Assembly: GCA_910579785.1 (NCBI GenBank)
Contig: CAJTVJ010000003.1
Location: 3,702-67,701 of the forward strand
Source of the DNA: an uncultured Christensenella sp.
GTDB taxonomy: Bacteria > Bacillota > Clostridia > Christensenellales > UBA3700
Length of the DNA stretch: 64,000 nt
Direction of reading: 5' to 3'
In this document: in pieces, positions 15,733 to 64,000 of the stretch
Position numbering within the stretch: position 1 is the first letter of the stretch
Layout: every line of letters begins with the position of its first letter
The notes under the pieces: generated by a model
The model's input: only the letters and a program-made list of their open reading frames with translations
What the model was told of the DNA's origin: nothing
Databases searched by the model: none
Position numbers and translations under genes: made by a program

Positions 15733-16465
15733 GTCTCAATATGAAGTAGAATTGATGCGCAAGGCAAATCAAATCGTAAAAGACGCGCTCAATCTCATTG
15801 AAGACAATATCAAAGAGGGGATGACTACGGCTGCGCTCGACAAGTTGGCGCACGACTACATAGTGAAGTGCGACGCATATCCTTCCTTTTTGGGATACAA
15901 CGGATTTCCTGCGTCGATATGCACTTCGATAAACGAACAGGTCGTTCACGGTATACCTTCCGACAAGAGGGTGATAAAAGAGGGCGACATAGTCAGCGTA
16001 GATTGCGGAAGTATTTATAAAGGATACAACGGCGACGCTGCAAGGACGTTTATGATAGGCAAGGTCAGCGAGGAAAAGGCGAAACTAGTCGAAGTCACCA
16101 AACAAAGCTTTTTTGAGGGAGTGAAAATTCTCAAAGAGGGCGTGAGACTTGGAGATTTGGGAAATACGATACAATCGTACGCCGAATCTTTCGGATACGG
16201 AGTTGTCAGAAGTCTGGTAGGTCACGGAATAGGCAGGGATATGCACGAGGACCCCGAAGTACCTAATTACGGCAGAGCGGGACACGGCATGAGATTGCGC
16301 AAGAATATGACTATCGCAATCGAGCCTATGATAAATATCGGCACTTACGACGTGCGTATGCTGGACGACGGATGGACGATAGTGACTGCTGACGGATCGC
16401 CGTCGGCACATTACGAAAACACCGTATTGATAAAAGAAGACGGAGTAGAGATACTGTCACTGTGA
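15719..16465 (+). CDS. map: Type I methionine aminopeptidase
   Basis: Motifs VVHGIP, VDCG, GDAARTF, GHGIG and AIEPM. Confidence 0.96.
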   Translation: MISIKSQYEVELMRKANQIVKDALNLIEDNIKEGMTTAALDKLAHDYIVKCDAYPSFLGYNGFPASICTSINEQVVHGIPSDKRVIKEGDIVSVDCGSIYKGYNGDAARTFMIGKVSEEKAKLVEVTKQSFFEGVKILKEGVRLGDLGNTIQSYAESFGYGVVRSLVGHGIGRDMHEDPEVPNYGRAGHGMRLRKNMTIAIEPMINIGTYDVRMLDDGWTIVTADGSPSAHYENTVLIKEDGVEILSL

Positions 16466-30427: not shown

Positions 30428-30819
30428 GTCATTTCGACCGAAACGTAGTGAAGCGGAGAAATCGCATCCGCTTATTTTTCAACTTGTTGAGACCTCTCCG
30501 CTACGGTCGAGGTGACTATATAATGGTTAAAGTTAATCAAGCTATGGTCATTTCGACCGAAGCGTAAGCGTAGCGGAGAAATCTAATCAAGTTGAATAAG
30601 TACCGACAAAATGTAGCGTAAGCGTGCATTTTCGTTTGGTCGGTAAGGACGGAACCCGACTGTATGTTTAGCAATCACTTTGCTTTGCTAAGTGATTGTG
30701 TATTACAAAGTCGTGGTGAACGCCCAGGTCATTGACGCTCGCCCAAGACGCACATGCTGGCTCGCTATGCCGTCGCTTTCGCTCCTTACGACTGTAACGC
30801 AGTGGAATGGAGAAAAATC
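30428..30819. repeat. Mosaic hairpin-repeat cluster 1
   Basis: Units at 30428-30463 (fwd, ATTTC/GAAAT), 30489-30516 (rev, ACCTC/GAGGT) and 30547-30584 (fwd). A 68-nt module B sits at 30595-30662, a unique hairpin at 30669-30700, and a long-arm C-type unit at 30728-30819. Confidence 0.9.
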
Positions 30820-30938
30820 CTTTTAATATAACTCAACAAAAATCTATCAAAATATAAAATTATCAAAAGTTTTATACAACAATATTGATTGCAGCGAAAA
30901 TATATGATAAAATATAGAAAAGGATGTGTAGATATATT

Positions 30939-40414: not shown

Positions 40415-40461
40415 TCGAGTAAAGGATAGATTGTCTCCTCATGGGAGAAATTTTATCAAAT

Positions 40462-40504
40462 AAATAGGACTGTACTTTATTAGAAGTACGGTCCTATTTA
40501 TTTA
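40462..40504 (+). terminator. Intrinsic terminator after the ABC exporter
   Basis: 16-bp stem AAATAGGACTGTACTT/AAGTACGGTCCTATTT (one G-U pair) followed by ATTT. Confidence 0.8.
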
Positions 40505-40512
40505 ATTCGATT

Positions 40513-40718
40513 AGACCTCTCCGCGTTGGTCGAGGTGACTAAATATTGCTTATAGCTAATCAAGCTAAGGTCATTTCGACCGTAGTGGAGAAATCTAATC
40601 CTTTTATTTTTTAATACGTTGAGACTTCTCGACTACGCTCGAAGTGACCGGATATGGCTTATTGTCAATCAAGCTTTCGCTCCTTACGACACTGTAACGC
40701 AGTGGAATGGAAAATCTC
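40513..40718. repeat. Mosaic hairpin-repeat cluster 2
   Basis: Units at 40513-40539 (rev, ACCTC/GAGGT), 40570-40596 (fwd, ATTTC/GAAAT) and 40621-40648 (rev, ACTTC/GAAGT). A truncated C-type unit sits at 40666-40718. Confidence 0.9.
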
Positions 40719-40731
40719 GACCTTGTAAATA

Positions 40732-44720: not shown

Positions 44721-45938
44721 TCAATAATGAGTATTTTCATTGAGTAGGGCGGGGCTTTTGCTTCCGTCCTTTTTTAGCAATATCATTGAAGATATGAAGA
44801 ATAATACCGCGAATATACTTGCGGTAGCTATGCCGCCTTTGAGTTGGAATTTAGACGCGTCGGAGACAAATCCCACTATACTGGGACCCAGCGTGCATCC
44901 TATATCGCCGCCCAGCGCCAGCAGGGCAAACATTGCAGTGCCGCCTTGCGGCAGGTTTTTTGACGCCGAATCCAAAGTGCCGGGCCAAGTTATGCTGACT
45001 GTAAAGCCGCACATAGCGCACGCAATGAGCGATACTACGGCATTGTTGCTAACTACGGCGACGATATAACATATCAAGGTGCTTGCGCCGGCTATCGGCA
45101 ACATCTTTTTAATATGTATTTTATATCCAAAAAGTCCATATAATAATCTTCCAAGTCCCATCAGCAGGGCAAAGCTGAACGGACCTATGAGATCGCCTGT
45201 CGCTTTGCTAAGTCCAAGACCTTTTTCCGCAAAGTATGACACCCACTGACTTATAGCCTGTTCGCAGGCGCCTGCGCACATGATGAGTATGATAAAGAGA
45301 TAGAGCATTTTGTTTTTAAACAAAGCTTTGAGACTCATGCTTTCTCCGCGTTGTTCGGCAAGACTTGTGCATGGAACGAAGAGGAAAAATATTCCGTTTA
45401 TTATTGGGAATATAGCAACTATATACAATAAATAGTGCCATTGAGACCTGTCAAAGAGCAAAAAGTATACGACGCTTAAAGTGACAGTCGCAAGAAAGCC
45501 AAAGCTGTAAAATGAGTGCAGCAGCGACATCTTTCCACCCTTTTGGTCGGGTATGGCTTCGACTATCGGCGAGGTTATGACTTCAATAATGCCTCCGCCT
45601 ATCGCGGTGATTATTATTGATATTATCAGCGCAGGATAAGGAGCCATTATATATGGCAGTACGCCCATTGCAATAAGCCCGACGGCAACAAATGCGTGAG
45701 ACGCTACCATTGCCGCGCGATAACCTATTTTGTCCATAAGCTTGGTGCATGCCGCGTCCATAAGAAGTTGGACTATAAACGTAAGTGTCACCAGCGCGGT
45801 AAGTTGAGTTAGGGAGATGTCAAAGCAGTCTTGAAAACTTGCAAATAAAAGCGGCGGAAGATTGATTTCCAACGCCTGGATTCCGCTTGCAACGCAACAG
45901 GAATTAAATGTATGTTTATAGCTTTTAAGTCTATTCAT
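44721..45938 (-). CDS. MFS transporter
   Basis: 405 aa with a 12-TM pattern. Confidence 0.8.
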   Translation of the reverse strand: MNRLKSYKHTFNSCCVASGIQALEINLPPLLFASFQDCFDISLTQLTALVTLTFIVQLLMDAACTKLMDKIGYRAAMVASHAFVAVGLIAMGVLPYIMAPYPALIISIIITAIGGGIIEVITSPIVEAIPDQKGGKMSLLHSFYSFGFLATVTLSVVYFLLFDRSQWHYLLYIVAIFPIINGIFFLFVPCTSLAEQRGESMSLKALFKNKMLYLFIILIMCAGACEQAISQWVSYFAEKGLGLSKATGDLIGPFSFALLMGLGRLLYGLFGYKIHIKKMLPIAGASTLICYIVAVVSNNAVVSLIACAMCGFTVSITWPGTLDSASKNLPQGGTAMFALLALGGDIGCTLGPSIVGFVSDASKFQLKGGIATASIFAVLFFISSMILLKKDGSKSPALLNENTHY

Positions 45939-46020
45939 TTATGTATTTCTCTTTTTGGCGATATTCTTTTGCTTTTCGCTTATAATATGAAATTTCCTTT
46001 TGCGTTGTTACTTGGCAAAG

Positions 46021-46529
46021 GTTGCAGGGTGTCGTGACTTTCTCCCAGACTTGTAGGTATATATTTAGTCGCCTCGACCGAAGCGGAGAGGTATCATCCT
46101 TTTATTTTTTTAATTCGTTGAGATTTCTCCGCTGCACTTCGTTTCGGTCGAAATGACTATATTTTTTGCTATGCTACAAACCATATCCAGTCACCTCGAC
46201 CGCAGTGGAGAGGTCTAATCGAGTTAAATAAGTACCGACAAAATGTAGCGTAAGCATGCATTTTCGTTTGGTCGGTAAGGGCGGAACCCGACTGCTAGAT
46301 TTTTAATCTGATGAGATTTCTCCACGCGTTACACTTCGGTCGAAATGACTTTACTATATATTAGTACCATTGTTACCTAGGATATGTTGCATTGGGAGAA
46401 GGCTCAAAGTTCCATATCCCCTACAATCTGCAACACTACGTAAGCTATGTCATTTCGACCGTAGCGGAGAAATCTCATCCGCTTATTTTTATTTACTTGT
46501 TGAGACCTCTCCGCGTTGGTCAAAATGAC
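46021..46529. repeat. Mosaic hairpin-repeat cluster 3 (largest)
   Basis: Units at 46068-46092 (fwd), 46120-46157 (rev), 46190-46216 (fwd), 46313-46349 (rev), 46449-46476 (fwd) and 46502-46529 (rev, hybrid arms). Module B sits at 46227-46294. Linker-family copies sit at 46021-46060 and 46388-46408. Confidence 0.9.
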
Positions 46530-46551
46530 TTAAAATATATTTGAGTCTACC

Positions 46552-47280
46552 TCAAAATCCGCCGCCGTTGACGGAGATAACCGCTCCGTTGACGTAACTT
46601 GACTTATCGCTTATCAGCCACACTGCGGCATTCGCCACGTCTTGCGGAGTACCTATTCTGCCAAGCGGTATGCTGTCTGTAATATCTTTTACGTCTTCTT
46701 TTGACAGGTGTGCGTTGATATCTGTATCTATAAAGCCGGGCGATATGCAGTTGACTCTTATTCCGTTGGGAGCCAATTCTTTGGATAGAGCTTTTGTAAA
46801 GGAGATTATTCCGCCTTTTGCCGCGGAGTATACGCTTTCGCAGCTTCCGCCTACTTCGCCCCATATAGAGGATACTGTCACTATATTGCCGTATTTTTGC
46901 TGCAACATTACCTTAGCGGCTTCTCTGCACAGAGTGATACAGCCTACTAAATCTGTCATTATGACTTTTTGTATGTCGCTGTCGCTGTGGTCAATGAGTA
47001 GTCCGTATGCGCCTATACCTGCGTTGGCGACGACGGCGTCGACAGATTTGTACTTTTCTTTGACGTACGTCACCGCCGATTTGATTTCGCCGGCATTAGA
47101 GACGTCGAATTTGACTGCTTCGGCAATACCTCCGTTGTTTGCAATGCTTGCGCATACTTCTTTTGCCTTTTCTTGGTTGTTGCAATAGCCTACTATGACC
47201 GCATATCCCTCTTTTGCCAGAGATATTGCAGTAGCTTTGCCTATTCCTCTTGATGCTCCCGATATAATTGCCGTTTTCAT
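46552..47280 (-). CDS. Short-chain dehydrogenase/reductase (FabG-like)
   Basis: SGASRGIGKA, NAG and YSAAK motifs; 242 aa. Confidence 0.88.
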   Translation of the reverse strand: MKTAIISGASRGIGKATAISLAKEGYAVIVGYCNNQEKAKEVCASIANNGGIAEAVKFDVSNAGEIKSAVTYVKEKYKSVDAVVANAGIGAYGLLIDHSDSDIQKVIMTDLVGCITLCREAAKVMLQQKYGNIVTVSSIWGEVGGSCESVYSAAKGGIISFTKALSKELAPNGIRVNCISPGFIDTDINAHLSKEDVKDITDSIPLGRIGTPQDVANAAVWLISDKSSYVNGAVISVNGGGF

Positions 47281-54684: not shown

Positions 54685-56268
54685 ATGAAAGATAAGCAAC
54701 AAAAGGACAATAAATACAAATATAAATTTTCTAGAATGAGAGCGTTGTTGATCACACTGCTGGGAGTGCTGATGATATCTGTGATAATAGGCACGTCTTT
54801 CGGTTTATATGCGGTCGGCGTCAATTTTGCAATGACGGAGATCACGCTTGATAAGGATATAGTATTTCAGACAATGGAGGGTTTCGGCGCGTCGTCGGCA
54901 TGGACGTATCAAGCTCTCGGACTTCATGAGGACGAAAAGTTAAAAGACAATGCCATGCACATGCTATACGGCGAGAGCGGACTTGCGCTCAGCAATTTCA
55001 GATACAATATAGGCGCCGGCGGAGCAGAGAGCGGCGGTTATAAGGATACGTTGCGAGGCGCGCAGTCTTTCTTTATGGCGGACAGATTTAACGGCGATTA
55101 TTCGGTATTTGCCGACGTCGACAACTATGACTTTACAAAAGACAGCGGAGTAATTGACCTATTTGAAAGGGCGCTTGCGCTGAACAATATAAAAGAGATA
55201 GTCTTTTTTGCCAATTCTCCGCATTATCTTATGACAAAGAACGGCAAGACGCACGCGAATGAGAAAGGCAAGAGTAATTTAAAAGAAGAGTGTTATGACG
55301 CTTTTGCAGATTATCTGCTTGTCATCACTCAATATCTGTATGAGAATATCGTAAAGAAGTATGACGGCAATATAGAGATTCATATTTCTCCCGTCAACGA
55401 GCCTCAATGGGATTGGGGCGGAGCAGGCGCGTCGCAAGAGGGCTGTCACTACGAGCCAAATGAACTTGCTAAATTTTACGACGTATTTTATAACAAGCTG
55501 ACGGCGCACAACGAAAAGTATTCGACTCAATTCAAGATGGATATATTTGAAAGCGGCAATTATAAGTTCAACGAACGTAAAGCTAAGTTAAGAGACTATC
55601 TCAACGCGTTTAGACAGTACGAATGGTTTGAAGGGATAGACAGCATATCTGTGCATTCTTACGACGCTGAGTTGGATACCAACTTGCGCAGGACATTCCG
55701 CAATTACGTCAGAAGTAATTGCGAGGGAAAGAGGATAGTTATGAGCGAAGTCTGCGTACAGAAAGAAGGCGTAGACAACGGCATAGACATGGGCGTCTAT
55801 TCGGCAAGAATGATAATGAGAGATTTGAATTGGCTTGACGTCACGTCTTGGAATTATTGGCTGTCGGTATCGGTATATAATTATGAAGACGGACTTATTT
55901 ATTGGGATCAATCCAATTCTTTGTCTGTGACAAAAAGATACTACACGATGGGACACTTTACCAAGTTTATTCCGCAGGGAAGTATGCGTATTAAATCCAG
56001 ATACAGCGATTCTTTCGGCATCAACGGAATAAACTACGTCGCGTTTTTAAGACCTGACGGCAGTATTGTTATCGTCGTCGTCAACAACAGCAAAAATAGC
56101 AGACAGATAAAAGTGCGCGGCGCGTACGACGACGTAAGAGAGACGTTGACTACCGCGGACGTAAATTGGCAATCGCAGGAATATCAATACGGCGGATACC
56201 TGAGCGTGCCGGCAAAGTCGGTCGTGACATATGAATTTATGCCGCCGTTAGAGAACGTGGAGGAGTGA
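54685..56268 (+). CDS. Glycoside hydrolase family 30-like protein, N-terminal membrane anchor
   Basis: GFGASSAW, SPVNEPQW (acid/base Glu) and MSEVC (candidate nucleophile Glu) motifs. Confidence 0.65.
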   Translation: MKDKQQKDNKYKYKFSRMRALLITLLGVLMISVIIGTSFGLYAVGVNFAMTEITLDKDIVFQTMEGFGASSAWTYQALGLHEDEKLKDNAMHMLYGESGLALSNFRYNIGAGGAESGGYKDTLRGAQSFFMADRFNGDYSVFADVDNYDFTKDSGVIDLFERALALNNIKEIVFFANSPHYLMTKNGKTHANEKGKSNLKEECYDAFADYLLVITQYLYENIVKKYDGNIEIHISPVNEPQWDWGGAGASQEGCHYEPNELAKFYDVFYNKLTAHNEKYSTQFKMDIFESGNYKFNERKAKLRDYLNAFRQYEWFEGIDSISVHSYDAELDTNLRRTFRNYVRSNCEGKRIVMSEVCVQKEGVDNGIDMGVYSARMIMRDLNWLDVTSWNYWLSVSVYNYEDGLIYWDQSNSLSVTKRYYTMGHFTKFIPQGSMRIKSRYSDSFGINGINYVAFLRPDGSIVIVVVNNSKNSRQIKVRGAYDDVRETLTTADVNWQSQEYQYGGYLSVPAKSVVTYEFMPPLENVEE

Positions 56269-56272
56269 TATA

Positions 56273-57820
56273 ATGAAGGGCAGAATGATAAAAGTAGCGG
56301 CAGCGCTTTTGACGTGCGTGGTGCTGACGTGTTGCGTATTGGGCATATTCGCTGTTTCAGCGCTTTTGGGTAAGACTACGCTGAGGATAGATACGAATGA
56401 AAAATTGCAGACAATGCAAGGTTTCGGCGCGTCGTCGGCATGGGTATATCAAGACTTAGGGCTTGAAGATCTAGCTACTAAGAACACTGCCATACAGATG
56501 CTTTACGGAAATGACGGTTTGCAGCTCAATACGTTTAGATACAACGTGGGCGCCGGCGGCGTGGAGAGCGACAACTACAAAGATCCTCTTAGAGGCGCGC
56601 AATCGTTTTTTATCGCAGAGAGATTTACAGGCGATTATTCGGTATTTGCCGACGCCGACAATTACGACTTCACGAGAGACGGCGCAGTGCTTGATTTATT
56701 TAAACGCGCGCTTGCCACAGGCAATATAGATAAGGTGATTTTCTTTGCCAATTCTCCGCACTATCTCATGACGAAAAACGGCAAGACGCACGGCGACGTT
56801 CCTTACGACAACAATTTAAAAGAGGAATGTTACGTTGCCTTTTCGCAATATATGCTCGTCATAGTCAACTATATCTATCAAAATATAATAAGTCAGTATG
56901 ACAAGGACATTCAAATATATATTTCTCCCGTCAACGAGCCTCAATGGAAATGGGGCGACGACGCGACGCAGGAGGATGGCGAAGCTACGCAAGAAGGCTG
57001 TCACTACGACCCCAAGCCGCTTGCAAAATTCTACGATACCTTTTACAGTCAGCTAGACGTATTCAATGACGAAAATTCCACAGACTTTAATATGGATATA
57101 TTCGAGAGCGGCAACTATAAGATGCTCAATTCGACGCGTACTAAGTTCAATGAATATATGCGCGAGTTTGAAAAATACGACTTTTTTGACGAGATTACGC
57201 ACATTTCTCTTCATTCGTACGGCGCGGATAAATCGATATTTTATAGGGAGATTTTTGCAGATTATATGTCTAAGAATTTTCCGCATATCAGCATAAGCAT
57301 GAGCGAGTACTGCACTATGGAATGGAACGTGGACGAGAGCATAGACATGGGGCTTTGGTGCGGCAAAGTTATGATGCGCGACATCGCTATATTGGGCGTG
57401 ACGGATTGGAGCTATTGGCTGTCTGTTGCCAAAGGCGGATATGAAGACGCTCTTGTATATTGGAAGAAAGACAACGGATACAATTCTTTTGAAGTCACCA
57501 AGAGATATTACGTATTCGGTCAGTTTTCCAAGTATATATCCAACGGCAGCGTGAGAGTATCTGCCGATTACAGCGACTTTTTGGGCGTCAACGGAATTGA
57601 GACGGCGGCGTTTAAAAATCCTGACGGCAGCGTAACCGTAATTGTATTGAATGACAGCGAGAAGTCGCATACCATTGCGCTTAAAGGCGTCGATAAATAT
57701 AAGAACGTCAAAGAGATAATGACTGACAGCGACGTAAATTGGCAGACGCGAGAGTATGCGTTTGACGGCAACGTAAAAGTGGCTGCCAAGTCAATGACTA
57801 CTTTTGTATTGACAAAGTGA
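56273..57820 (+). CDS. Glycoside hydrolase family 30-like protein, paralog of the preceding gene
   Basis: Same motifs (GFGASSAW, SPVNEPQW, MSEYC). Collinear similarity to 54685-56268. Confidence 0.65.
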   Translation: MKGRMIKVAAALLTCVVLTCCVLGIFAVSALLGKTTLRIDTNEKLQTMQGFGASSAWVYQDLGLEDLATKNTAIQMLYGNDGLQLNTFRYNVGAGGVESDNYKDPLRGAQSFFIAERFTGDYSVFADADNYDFTRDGAVLDLFKRALATGNIDKVIFFANSPHYLMTKNGKTHGDVPYDNNLKEECYVAFSQYMLVIVNYIYQNIISQYDKDIQIYISPVNEPQWKWGDDATQEDGEATQEGCHYDPKPLAKFYDTFYSQLDVFNDENSTDFNMDIFESGNYKMLNSTRTKFNEYMREFEKYDFFDEITHISLHSYGADKSIFYREIFADYMSKNFPHISISMSEYCTMEWNVDESIDMGLWCGKVMMRDIAILGVTDWSYWLSVAKGGYEDALVYWKKDNGYNSFEVTKRYYVFGQFSKYISNGSVRVSADYSDFLGVNGIETAAFKNPDGSVTVIVLNDSEKSHTIALKGVDKYKNVKEIMTDSDVNWQTREYAFDGNVKVAAKSMTTFVLTK

Positions 57821-57927: not shown

Positions 57928-59013
57928 ATGTTGAAGATAGATATCATATCGGGATTTTTAGGCGCAGGTAAGACGACTTTGATAAAGAAGCTTTTGTCGT
58001 CTGCATTGAAAGGACAAAAAATCGTATTGATAGAAAATGAGTTTGGCGACATTGGCATAGACGGCGGATTTTTAAAAGAATCTGGCATTCAGATAAACGA
58101 AATGAACAGCGGATGTATATGTTGTTCGCTTGTGGGCGATTTCAAAAAGGCGTTAAATCAAGTGTATGAGCAATATGCGCCTGACAGAATAATCATTGAG
58201 CCGTCGGGCGTGGGAAAACTCAGCGACGTATTGCAGGCAGTGTTGTCTGCTCAGCTTCCTGACAGCGAAATATCTTCGCTTACGGCGGTGGTCGACGCAA
58301 AGAAGTGCAAGATGTATATCAAGAACTTCGGAGAGTTTTATAAAAATCAAATAGAGCAGGCTAAATGCGTCGTGCTCTCGCATACGTCAAATATAGACGA
58401 TGCCAAGTTGCAATACTGTCTCGATACCGTCAAGTCGCTCAATAAAGACGCAGTGATAGTGACTACGCCTTGGGATGAGATAGACGGCGAAAAGATTTTT
58501 GCCGCTATGACAAACGTATCTTCACTTGCCAATGATTTGCAACATCTTCACGAAGAAGAAGTATGTCCCGTATGCGGAGGACATCACCATCACCACGGCG
58601 AGGACGAAGAATGCGGCTGCGGACATCACCATCATCACCATGAGGACGAAGAGTGCAGTTGCGGACACCACCATCACCACGACGAAGACGAAGAGTGCGG
58701 CTGCGGTCATCACCATCACCACGGACACGATGCCGACGAAGTATTTTCTAGTTGGGGAGTGGAGACGGCAGGAAAATACGGCGCGGAGCAGATAAAGGAG
58801 TTGCTTTCAAGTTTAGATAGCGGAGAGTACGGCGTGATATTGAGAGCAAAGGGCATCGTGCCTAGCGCAGACGGCAAATGGATACATTTTGACTACGTAC
58901 CGGAAGAGGTAGACGTACGCTTTGGAAGCAGCGAAGTAATAGGAAGAATTTGCGTGATAGGCAGCAAGATAGACGAGGGCAAGCTTGCAAAGCTCTTTGA
59001 GATAAAGGCTTGA
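57928..59013 (+). CDS. COG0523/CobW-family G3E GTPase metallochaperone with a His-rich repeat
   Basis: GFLGAGKTT Walker A and GCICCS metal motif. Four H5-6 runs separated by EDEEC(G/S)C. CobW_C-like C-terminus. Confidence 0.88.
   Translation: MLKIDIISGFLGAGKTTLIKKLLSSALKGQKIVLIENEFGDIGIDGGFLKESGIQINEMNSGCICCSLVGDFKKALNQVYEQYAPDRIIIEPSGVGKLSDVLQAVLSAQLPDSEISSLTAVVDAKKCKMYIKNFGEFYKNQIEQAKCVVLSHTSNIDDAKLQYCLDTVKSLNKDAVIVTTPWDEIDGEKIFAAMTNVSSLANDLQHLHEEEVCPVCGGHHHHHGEDEECGCGHHHHHHEDEECSCGHHHHHDEDEECGCGHHHHHGHDADEVFSSWGVETAGKYGAEQIKELLSSLDSGEYGVILRAKGIVPSADGKWIHFDYVPEEVDVRFGSSEVIGRICVIGSKIDEGKLAKLFEIKA
58579..58731 (+). repeat. In-frame 42-nt tandem repeat (3.6 copies) encoding GHHHHH(G/H/D)EDEEC(G/S)C
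   Basis: Copies at 58579-58620, 58621-58662 and 58663-58704, plus a partial copy at 58705-58731. Confidence 0.9.
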
Positions 59014-63512: not shown

Positions 63513-63640
63513 ATATTTGACTGCATATCCATTGATTATAATCAACATATACATGGCTTTTATTTTTTTATGATAATTAAGGGATATGCAAGCGTATAAA
63601 TTTGACTTGGAAGAGTGTAAATGAGCATACATTGCTTACA

Positions 63641-64000
63641 GTCAATCAAGCTTTAAGTCATTTCGACCGAAGTGCAACGAAGCGGAGAAATCTCAACAAA
63701 TTAAAATAATGAAGTCACTTCGAGCGTAGTGGAGAAGTCTCAACCTTTTATTTAACTCGATTAGACCTCTCCGCGTTGGTCGAGGTGACCAAATGTGAAT
63801 CTTACAAGCTTGGGAGGAAATCGTCATTGACGCTCGCCCAAGACGCACCTGCTGGCTCGCTATGCTAGTGCTTTCGCTCCTTACGACCGAAGTGGAGAAA
63901 TCTCATCCTTTTATCTTTTAATAAGTTGAGACTTCTCGACTGTGCTCGAAGTGACCGAATATAAATCTTACTAGCATTGGAGGAAATCGTCATTGCCGCT
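63641..64000. repeat. Mosaic hairpin-repeat cluster 4 (continues past the window end)
   Basis: Units at 63657-63694 (fwd), 63714-63741 (fwd, ACTTC/GAAGT), 63763-63789 (rev) and 63928-63955 (rev). A C-type unit sits at 63823-63904 and a second C-type unit starts at 63989. Confidence 0.9.

Follow-up and report, generated by a model that had tools for sequence, protein, structure and literature searches.

What fills the 613 bp between a gene for an MFS (major facilitator superfamily) transporter and one for a short-chain dehydrogenase (SDR) in the genome of an uncultured Christensenella sp.? The two genes lie in a 64-kb stretch of contig CAJTVJ010000003.1 (64,000 nucleotides, hereafter the window), and the gap between them holds, at 46068-46529, six copies of one short palindromic unit in strictly alternating orientation (+,-,+,-,+,-). 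A prediction made from the letters of the window (the original prediction) had described these six alternating copies, which we confirm, and had likened their organisation to that of the bacterial interspersed mosaic elements (BIMEs) of enterobacteria. We put at roughly 60% the probability that the units form a family of the repetitive extragenic palindrome (REP) type, arranged in a mosaic like those of BIMEs and of Neisseria intergenic mosaic elements (NIMEs), and that the unit is read as a single-stranded DNA hairpin.

Searching the window for GTCAYYTCGACCG with at most one mismatch gave 16 matches, against a mean of 0.13 and a maximum of 1 in 100 shuffles. With filtering switched off, a covariance model derived from 84 units returned the same 16 full units (E 9e-9 to 4e-4) together with one half unit, and at least three further variant or half units lie at 40676-40725, 63873-63905 and about 30770-30815, in keeping with the 17 or more copies counted originally. 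The units are 26-37 nt long, are divided eight and eight between the strands and fall into four intergenic clusters (30428-30815, 40510-40730, 46021-46533, and 63640 to the window end), all of which, on comparison of the window with itself, are built from an identical set of modules. The arrays span about 1.5 kb, or 2.3% of the window, in line with the figure of about 3% originally given. The three stem haplotypes that had been named (ATTTC/GAAAT, ACCTC/GAGGT and ACTTC/GAAGT) are all present; every 3'-facing pair in the window is heterotypic, as had been claimed; and both linkers, one reading T[AC]ATCC, a T-run and GTTGAGA, the other AATCAAGCT, are found.

How does the unit fold? The original prediction had drawn a co-varying 5-bp outer stem around an inner CCG/CGG helix, and only the first of these stands. 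We aligned 84 distinct 26-nt units from the window and from many phyla, stem complementarity not being a criterion for their selection. Within this alignment the four variable pairs of the outer stem show 16, 39, 9 and 3 two-sided changes, and only three rows, likely false positives, lack stem pairing. For the revised fold described below the covariation score is 0.516 versus 0.218 in shuffles, with 0 of 500 shuffles reaching it and every slid register scoring 0.24 or less. The co-variation proposed from the window is thus seen across many phyla. The CCG/CGG helix, by contrast, fails as a general fold in about one third of the aligned units. The revised fold has 96.6% of its cells paired, versus 83.8% for the model with the CCG/CGG helix, and its additional inner pair, at columns 15-22, is CG in 50 units, GC in 26 and AU in 2.

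A second search for hairpins, in which only GTCA, a complementary 4-mer and TC were fixed, yielded 274 hairpins with GA at both the start and the end of the inner part. The adjoining inner pair is Watson-Crick in 265 of the 274, and 79 of those 265 pairs are G-C, A-T or T-A, a result that cannot stem from the original scan pattern. The apex C-GNA-G is present in 200 of the 274 hairpins (N being A in 79, G in 43, T in 40 and C in 39), and units with a long apex contain nested CGAG and GCGAAGC modules, for example C-GA-G-C-GAA-G-C-GA-G. The GTAG tetranucleotide that had been placed in the loop of about half the units does occur in 7 of the 16; it is merely the N = T form of the apex, C-GTA-G, standing beside GAA, GCA and GGA, and is not the foot tetranucleotide of the REPs that are mobilised by REP-associated tyrosine transposases (RAYTs). 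Among the 84 aligned units GTC is invariant and is followed by A in 82; stem pair 1 is A-T in 82, and pair 2 is T-A in 64 units and C-G in 16, the types that deviate there being ACCTC and ACTTC. The 3' tail is C and then mostly T (consensus CTN), and the base before GTC is A or G in the window and mostly T or C in other phyla. Since an inner GA/GA, a co-varying pair and C-GNA-G fit every type, the unit, whose 5' tag GTC is unpaired, can be written GTC / A-N4 / G·A A·G / N-N' / C-GNA-G / N4'-T / C, a single base being bulged out 3' of C-GNA-G.

Two elements of this grammar have counterparts in DNA structures. [quoted passage not shown] The apex C-GNA-G of our units matches it letter for letter. 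The CGAG block, C-GA-G opposite C-GA-G, has been solved by nuclear magnetic resonance in DNA hairpins as tandem sheared G·A pairs between C:G and G:C, and units of the GAGCG...TCGAG type hold exactly C-GA-G / C-GA-G (PMC10085684). By analogy, GA opposite GA in the unit would take up the same geometry of tandem sheared G·A pairs. Both are structural motifs and not a repeat family, and their known natural sites are phage and plasmid origins and a human promoter rather than dispersed bacterial repeats (PMC13037366, PMC10085684). Such motifs are exceptionally stable as DNA and far less stable as RNA, and for this reason single-stranded DNA is the most likely working form of the unit.

The same grammar is found far beyond Christensenella. 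A collection holding one genome per species (596 Gb) was scanned with both variable stem positions left free on each arm, and at least 118 stretches were recovered, against an estimated 13 or so chance matches. Nearly all of the approximately 126 matches listed have complementary stems, where chance would give 25%; the exceptions include the sole archaeal match listed, which is probably a chance one. By their record titles, the matches listed come from Clostridia and other Bacillota, Bacteroidota, Acidobacteriota, Chloroflexota, Alpha- and Gammaproteobacteria, Desulfobacterota, Planctomycetota, Verrucomicrobiota (Kiritimatiellia), Spirochaetota, Ignavibacteriota, Balneolales, Cloacimonadota and Patescibacteria, and the hairpin grammar is conserved in at least 13 bacterial phyla. 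Further stem types occur in these loci (TTCC, TCCC, TCCT, CCCC, TATC, TGTC and others), all of them complementary. The units are biased towards intergenic sequence: 79% are intergenic, while intergenic sequence makes up only 16.5% of the total. Among 2.9 million viral contigs there were only 7 pattern matches. A metagenome scan with the species-specific linker plus unit gave 61 stretches, of which about 54 are chance matches in genes and 7 are true arrays, one of these being a third allele of the 46021-46529 locus. A full-text search of the literature for the unit sequence returned unrelated primers only.

Neighbouring units in other genomes are mostly inverted relative to each other: 61 pairs face each other with their 3' ends, 37 with their tags, and 23 run in the same direction, and 33 of the 61 3'-facing pairs are heterotypic. 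In an Aliifodinibius isolate (locus L045, 3500-4530) tandem modules of about 284 bp each carry a tag-facing pair about 70 nt apart, and this looks like a NIME-type array in Balneolales. A Patescibacteria locus (L067, 744-841 and 2053-2148) has arrays of three head-to-tail units with a 36-nt period (26-nt unit plus 10-nt spacer); the two arrays are opposite in orientation and about 1.2 kb apart, a layout unlike the inverted doublets elsewhere.

To which known class do the units belong? The original prediction had not recognised the family, and here it can be corrected, for the units share several traits with the CGTC-tagged REP superfamily, which includes Neisseria dRS3 and Rickettsia RPE-4 and RPE-6 (Di Nocera et al. 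2013, PMC3733652). Members of that superfamily carry an unpaired, terminal 5' tag, CGTC or TGTC (or CCTC), whose GTC core is also the core of our tag; as in our units, the stem begins with A·T and then T·A and has about 8 paired positions, the 3' tail begins with C, the repeats are mostly inverted dimers and often heterodimers, no transposase is adjacent, and several phyla are involved (PMC3733652). In other phyla, moreover, exact dRS3-like palindromes (GTCATTCCCGCGCAGGCGGGAATC) share loci with units of the G·A type. Three Planctomycetota loci, L080 (at about 1384-1410), L073 and L089, have perfect-stem units of the dRS3 type (GTCATTCCCGCGCAGGCGGGAATC, GTCATACCCGCGAAAGCGGGTATC) beside units of the G·A type. 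This sharing of loci suggests that both types belong to one system.

The differences are equally specific. Stem positions 6-7 are invariant GA/GA here and Watson-Crick in the CGTC REPs; the apex here is C-GNA-G plus a one-base bulge, or nested and long, whereas theirs is a loop of 4-5 nt; their stem is an uninterrupted 8-9 bp with at most one mismatch, a description that does not fit our units; the tail is CTN rather than CCA; in this genome the base before GTC is A or G rather than C or T; and at least 13 phyla are represented here, as against five (PMC3733652). Because the published pipeline dropped palindromes with more than one stem mismatch, the G·A branch lies outside the four families that it defined (PMC3733652). 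We class the units as a structural variant within the CGTC-type REP kind, namely a bulged, G·A-containing branch set in NIME- and BIME-like arrays.

NIME arrays were said to be absent outside Neisseria (PMC1797815). Like them, the arrays described here have short palindromes bracketing several unrelated spacer modules of 50-150 bp, occupy a fixed place in gene order while varying between strains in repeat number and content, and have units that are richer in G+C than their A/T-rich spacers (PMC1797815). They differ in organism and unit sequence, in being dominated by two short fixed linkers with larger modules only occasional, and in having no known link to a phage recombinase; the NIME palindrome is dRS3 (ATTCCC-N8-GGGAAT), the integration site of Nf phage, whereas the window units read ATTTC...GAAAT and similar and no phage junctions were seen at them. 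With enterobacterial REPs and BIMEs the arrays share extragenic imperfect palindromes with conserved unpaired bases, stem covariation, a presumed recognition as single-stranded DNA hairpins and, with BIME-2 in particular, two unit types that alternate in orientation between fixed linkers. BIME-1 linkers bind IHF, and BIME-2 arrays bind gyrase. The BIME organisation originally proposed therefore holds for the alternating stem types and the two fixed linkers and not for the sequence: there is no similarity to Y, Z1 or Z2 and no GT[AG]G foot, so by sequence the units are not BIMEs or REPs of the RAYT type. The window doublets, being heterotypic, also differ from REPINs (hairpin-forming doublets of REPs), whose arms are near identical. 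The likeness of the arrays to Neisseria NIMEs is at least as close as that to BIMEs.

The array between the MFS and SDR genes, the six units of which were introduced above, is made up as follows.

44721-45938, minus strand: MFS transporter gene, start codon toward the array.
46021-46067, unstranded: array-proximal segment, alike in three alleles; GTGACTTTCTCCCAGAC is possibly a decayed unit; ATAT-rich 5' leader of unit 1.
46068-46093, plus strand: unit 1, GTCG-CCTC-GA-C-CGAAG-C-G-GA-GAGG-TA; 30.8 bits.
46094-46121, plus strand: linker joining 3'-facing units, ATCATCC, T-run, CGTTGAGA; directional, T-rich on the plus strand.
46122-46157, minus strand: unit 2, TTTC type; the apex is long, the inner part measuring 22 nt; 36.7 bits.
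46158-46189, unstranded: linker of 32 nt, ATAT-rich, joining units with facing GTCA tags.
46190-46215, plus strand: unit 3, CCTC type, GTCA-CCTC-GA-C-CGCAG-T-G-GA-GAGG-TC; 43.6 bits.
46216-46295, plus strand: TAATCGAGTTAAATAAG, then a hairpin module of about 65 nt (TACCGACAAAATG...CATTTTCGTTTGGTCGGTA...GGAACCCGACTG).
46315-46349, minus strand: unit 4, TTTC type, with a long degenerate apex; 36.6 bits.
46350-46448, unstranded: 99-nt spacer that contains an inverted repeat (GGATATGTTGCA ... TGCAAC/CATATCC) and ends in AAGCTAT, a partial AATCAAGCT linker.
46449-46474, plus strand: unit 5, canonical TTTC type, GTCA-TTTC-GA-C-CGTAG-C-G-GA-GAAA-TC; 48.3 bits, the top model match of the window.
46475-46503, plus strand: linker joining 3'-facing units, TCATCCGCTTATTTTTATTTACTTGTTGAGA.
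46504-46529, minus strand: unit 6, a hybrid with left arm ATTTT and right arm GAGGT, three G·T wobbles and apex CAACG; 27.5 bits.
46552-47280, minus strand: SDR gene, stop codon toward the array.

The other three clusters of the window contain these features.

30428-30815, unstranded: cluster 1, units at 30428-30463 (plus), 30491-30516 (minus) and 30547-30583 (plus).
30597-30662 and 30728-30815: extra modules of cluster 1, the first of 65 nt, the second of about 90 nt.
40510-40730, unstranded: cluster 2, units at 40514-40539 (minus), 40570-40595 (plus) and 40623-40648 (minus); variant half unit at 40676-40725.
63640-64000 and past the window end, unstranded: cluster 4, units at 63657-63692 (plus), 63714-63739 (plus), 63764-63789 (minus) and 63930-63955 (minus); variant unit at 63873-63905 (plus).

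Both copies that had been singled out as exceptions are as claimed. Unit 6 is the hybrid; unit 1 is the degenerate copy, with a GTCG tag instead of GTCA and a TA tail, and two other alleles have GTCA at that place. The complete cluster 4 array is visible in locus L125.

Other repeats share the arrays. The 65-nt hairpin module (TACCGACAAAATG...CATTTTCGTTTGGTCGGTA...GGAACCCGACTG) occurs in the window at 30597-30662 and 46228-46295 and also in loci L008 and L127; its two window copies are 91% identical across enclosing stretches of 94 nt (30569-30662 and 46201-46294), it always lies downstream of a unit plus TAATCRAGTTRAATAAG, and it is a second repeat family inside the arrays. A third module of about 90-105 nt (GGTCATTGACGCTCGCCCAAGACGCAC.TGCTGGCTCGCTATGC...GCTTTCGCTCCTTACGAC...GGAGAAATC) is found at 30728-30815, 63806-63905 and 40668-40730, and at 16170-16300 of locus L002; it terminates in a variant half unit whose left arm is swapped for TTTCGCTCC. 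Two convergent genes are separated by a near-perfect palindrome of 52 bp at 40455-40506 (AATAAATAGGAC.GTACTT...AAGTAC.GTCCTATTTATTT), which looks like a bidirectional terminator and directly adjoins the first unit of cluster 2. Elsewhere in the window, two adjacent genes of glycoside hydrolase family 30 (54864-55670 and 56404-57228) are 71% identical in DNA, which points to tandem duplication, and a CobW-like gene (57928-59013) contains a direct repeat of 60 nt, 90% identical, at 58579-58638 and 58663-58722.

How do the arrays change? Related loci provide several alleles for comparison. One (L006, GCA_948837595.1) is 100% identical to the window across 20.7 kb, and another, recorded as 'uncultured Clostridia' (L008), shares the linker family. 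In L002 the flanking genes are 99.2% identical to those of the window, whereas the 46021-46529 locus there is a 222-bp gap with two units, versus 613 bp and six units in the window. A third allele, L157, has about 300 bp and three units, one of them fused as GTCA|CCTCTCC. The three alleles come from strains with flanks about 99% identical, and in all of them the outermost unit on each side is kept. Cluster 2 of L002 has an extra block of 174 bp, consisting of a unit, a linker, a variant unit and a longer module; the third module named above forms part of this block, which is present in one strain and missing from another. GGTCA stands at both borders of the block, despite longer identical stretches being available for crossover. 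In cluster 1 the first doublet is different in L126, and in L127 (3430-3700, versus 30580-30930 of the window) the cluster runs on with extra units and then meets a different downstream gene, so that gene order breaks at the array. From the differences in L002, L157, L126 and L127 it follows that the arrays change by whole modules at or near unit borders, and far faster than the flanking genes acquire substitutions.

Turnover of this kind bears on the alternative that fares best, namely that the units are sites like Neisseria dRS3, at which Nf filamentous phage integrates by way of an IS110/Piv-type enzyme, and that the arrays are a by-product of recombination with incoming DNA. The kinship of the unit to dRS3 and the NIME-like arrays (PMC1797815, PMC3733652), the whole modules bounded at unit edges by which alleles differ, and the array lying at a break in gene order would all be expected under it. 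We nevertheless consider it unlikely. No IS110/Piv-type or other recombinase was found near the units in the window or in the 118 listed loci, the pattern has only the few matches in viral contigs reported above, and a duplex crossover site would conserve sequence and would need neither covariation between arms nor G·A blocks nor a mini-hairpin apex.

RNA roles have been proposed for many REPs. Here the units could act as hairpins that protect 3' ends, as terminators or as processing sites, both in an SDR-MFS transcript and elsewhere, and the cluster at 46021-46529 does lie between co-oriented genes. The placement of the units is strongly intergenic, there are T-runs in the linkers, and GCGGA...TCCGC followed by TTATTTTT could form weak terminator-like hairpins. 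However, the T-runs begin at least 8 nt past the stem and in cluster 3 (46021-46533) lie on the non-transcribed strand, opposite to transcription, and a terminator scan gave 2 sites versus 0.9 expected, neither of them built on a unit hairpin. Nor does orientation point to a transcript: in tandem gene contexts 61 units run in the direction of the genes and 49 against it, which is no bias, and 28 of 180 units lie between divergent genes. In imperfect stems G·T (G·U in RNA) is not favoured over A·C, an asymmetry that we tested as a sign of RNA, and the apex and G·A motifs are of the kind that is stable in DNA. Rfam had no match at gathering threshold anywhere in the window; over 45940-46560, with the E limit relaxed to 10, it gave only chance miRNA-like matches (E at least 0.08). 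We therefore regard a role as RNA as quite improbable. Readings of the unit as a hammerhead, K-turn, attC site, CRISPR repeat or CsrA site were set aside by eye, since their conserved cores or spacings do not fit.

It is very improbable that the inverted doublets are miniature inverted-repeat transposable elements (MITEs), that is, deletion derivatives of an insertion sequence (IS) with the units as terminal inverted repeats and a transposase encoded elsewhere: inverted ends around a conserved internal linker do recur in doublets 80-110 bp long, and a doublet folds as a single long hairpin (-16 kcal/mol, z = -5), but the six doublets lack a consistent target-site duplication or flanking direct repeat, no parent IS with such ends was found, and the two ends of a doublet differ in stem type. 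In other genomes doublets are matched in frequency by single units and tag-facing pairs (61/37/23), and the two halves of an IS end would not stay complementary to each other across 13 phyla. There is just as little to be said for hairpins that the host keeps as single-strand initiation, priming or other replisome signals, for lagging-strand or restart priming: the apex motif is common to ssiA (CCGAAGG) and G4-type phage origins (PMC13037366) and the design is conserved across phyla, genome-reduced Patescibacteria included, yet copy number varies widely among close strains, which is unexpected of an essential signal, both strands are used equally in the window, and nothing ties the units to primases.

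We thus return to a REP-type family that is read as single-stranded DNA. Of what this account draws on, the anatomy of the unit, its covariation, extragenic bias and spread over phyla and the turnover between strains are shown by the results above, and the single-stranded state, the sheared G·A geometry and a dedicated enzyme are inferred. By this account, the unit would be exposed as single-stranded DNA at replication forks or during repair, and a trans-acting protein would read the GTC tag and the hairpin, in parallel with the action of RAYT/IS200-type enzymes on REPs, although with different sequence rules. Units would be laid down as inverted doublets with two fixed linkers, and arrays would afterwards lengthen, shorten and exchange modules at the borders of units, so that these intergenic sites would be hot spots of recombination.

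Several observations weigh against this account, and the first of them concern the enzyme. The 64-kb window encodes no transposase, whether of the HUH/Y1 or IS110 type or any other, as the original prediction had said, and the 10 kb past its right end are likewise without a unit-linked one. All-against-all clustering of 2757 open reading frames from the 118 listed unit-bearing loci, covering neighbours within about 4 kb of units, showed only housekeeping families to recur, and genes bracketed by inverted units in these loci encode housekeeping or unknown proteins, none transposase-like by eye. The link to RAYTs that had been suggested thus finds no support in the window, in the 10 kb beyond it or in the 118 listed loci, and the tables of RAYT-associated REPs of Quentin et al. 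2018 are without these motifs, the REPs of the 'atypical' subclass 2.6 being different sequences. The lack of an enzyme near the units agrees with the published result for CGTC REPs, for which no associated transposase was found (PMC3733652). The sole recombinase in the 10 kb is a resolvase-family (PF00239) gene of 198 aa (L125, 1154-1750), about 8 kb from the array; it adjoins a small helix-turn-helix gene, and no hairpin units lie beside it. We know of a mobilising enzyme only for the GTAG class of REPs, the RAYTs, and of neither an enzyme nor a mechanism for the CGTC class since its description in 2013.

The remaining points concern the alleles and the fold. The alleles compared show no target-site duplication and no clean empty site, and so do not demonstrate transposition itself. 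The GTCA|CCTCTCC junction of L157 can be explained by slippage on a 5-nt microhomology, ACCTC, which a left arm has in common with the complementary strand of a right arm, and an enzyme is therefore not required for every event. The invariance of GA/GA among the 84 aligned units is partly imposed by the way the units were selected, and the matches in other phyla are mostly from metagenome-assembled genomes, although isolates of Pedobacter, Fodinibius, Aliifodinibius and Flagellimonas are among them. In nearest-neighbour DNA folding, which gives no credit to mini-hairpin and CGAG motifs, single units come out as weak (-2 to -5 kcal/mol, z-scores not significant); that single units are stable is accordingly an argument by analogy with these published special motifs.

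A wider proposal, which we make tentatively and think rather doubtful, is that tag, stem, CGAG block and C-GNA-G together may be the recognition module of a system that processes single-stranded DNA in at least 13 phyla, the genome-reduced Patescibacteria among them. If so, behind it would stand either mobilising enzymes of a new family, separate from the RAYTs, or a universal protein of the replisome or of repair, and CGTC REPs, dRS3/NIME arrays and the G·A family would all be products of one activity.

REPs are among the most abundant non-coding elements of bacteria. Our results give their CGTC class a branch with an exact structural grammar, made up of tandem G·A, a single co-varying pair and an apex of the DNA mini-hairpin type, and this grammar, being of a DNA type, argues for a single-stranded DNA substrate and is conserved in many more phyla than reported before. 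NIME-like arrays, once called Neisseria-specific, are also found in gut Clostridia-like and Balneolales genomes, where they show quick turnover between strains. The motif provides a precise search key with which unit counts can be correlated with protein families across genomes in search of the mobilising enzyme, and a defined oligonucleotide for biophysics and pull-downs, such as d(GTCATTTCGACCGTAGCGGAGAAATC) or d(GTCACTTCGAGCGTAGTCGAGAAGTC). Finally, such arrays break assemblies and mark hot spots of recombination in metagenome-assembled genomes.

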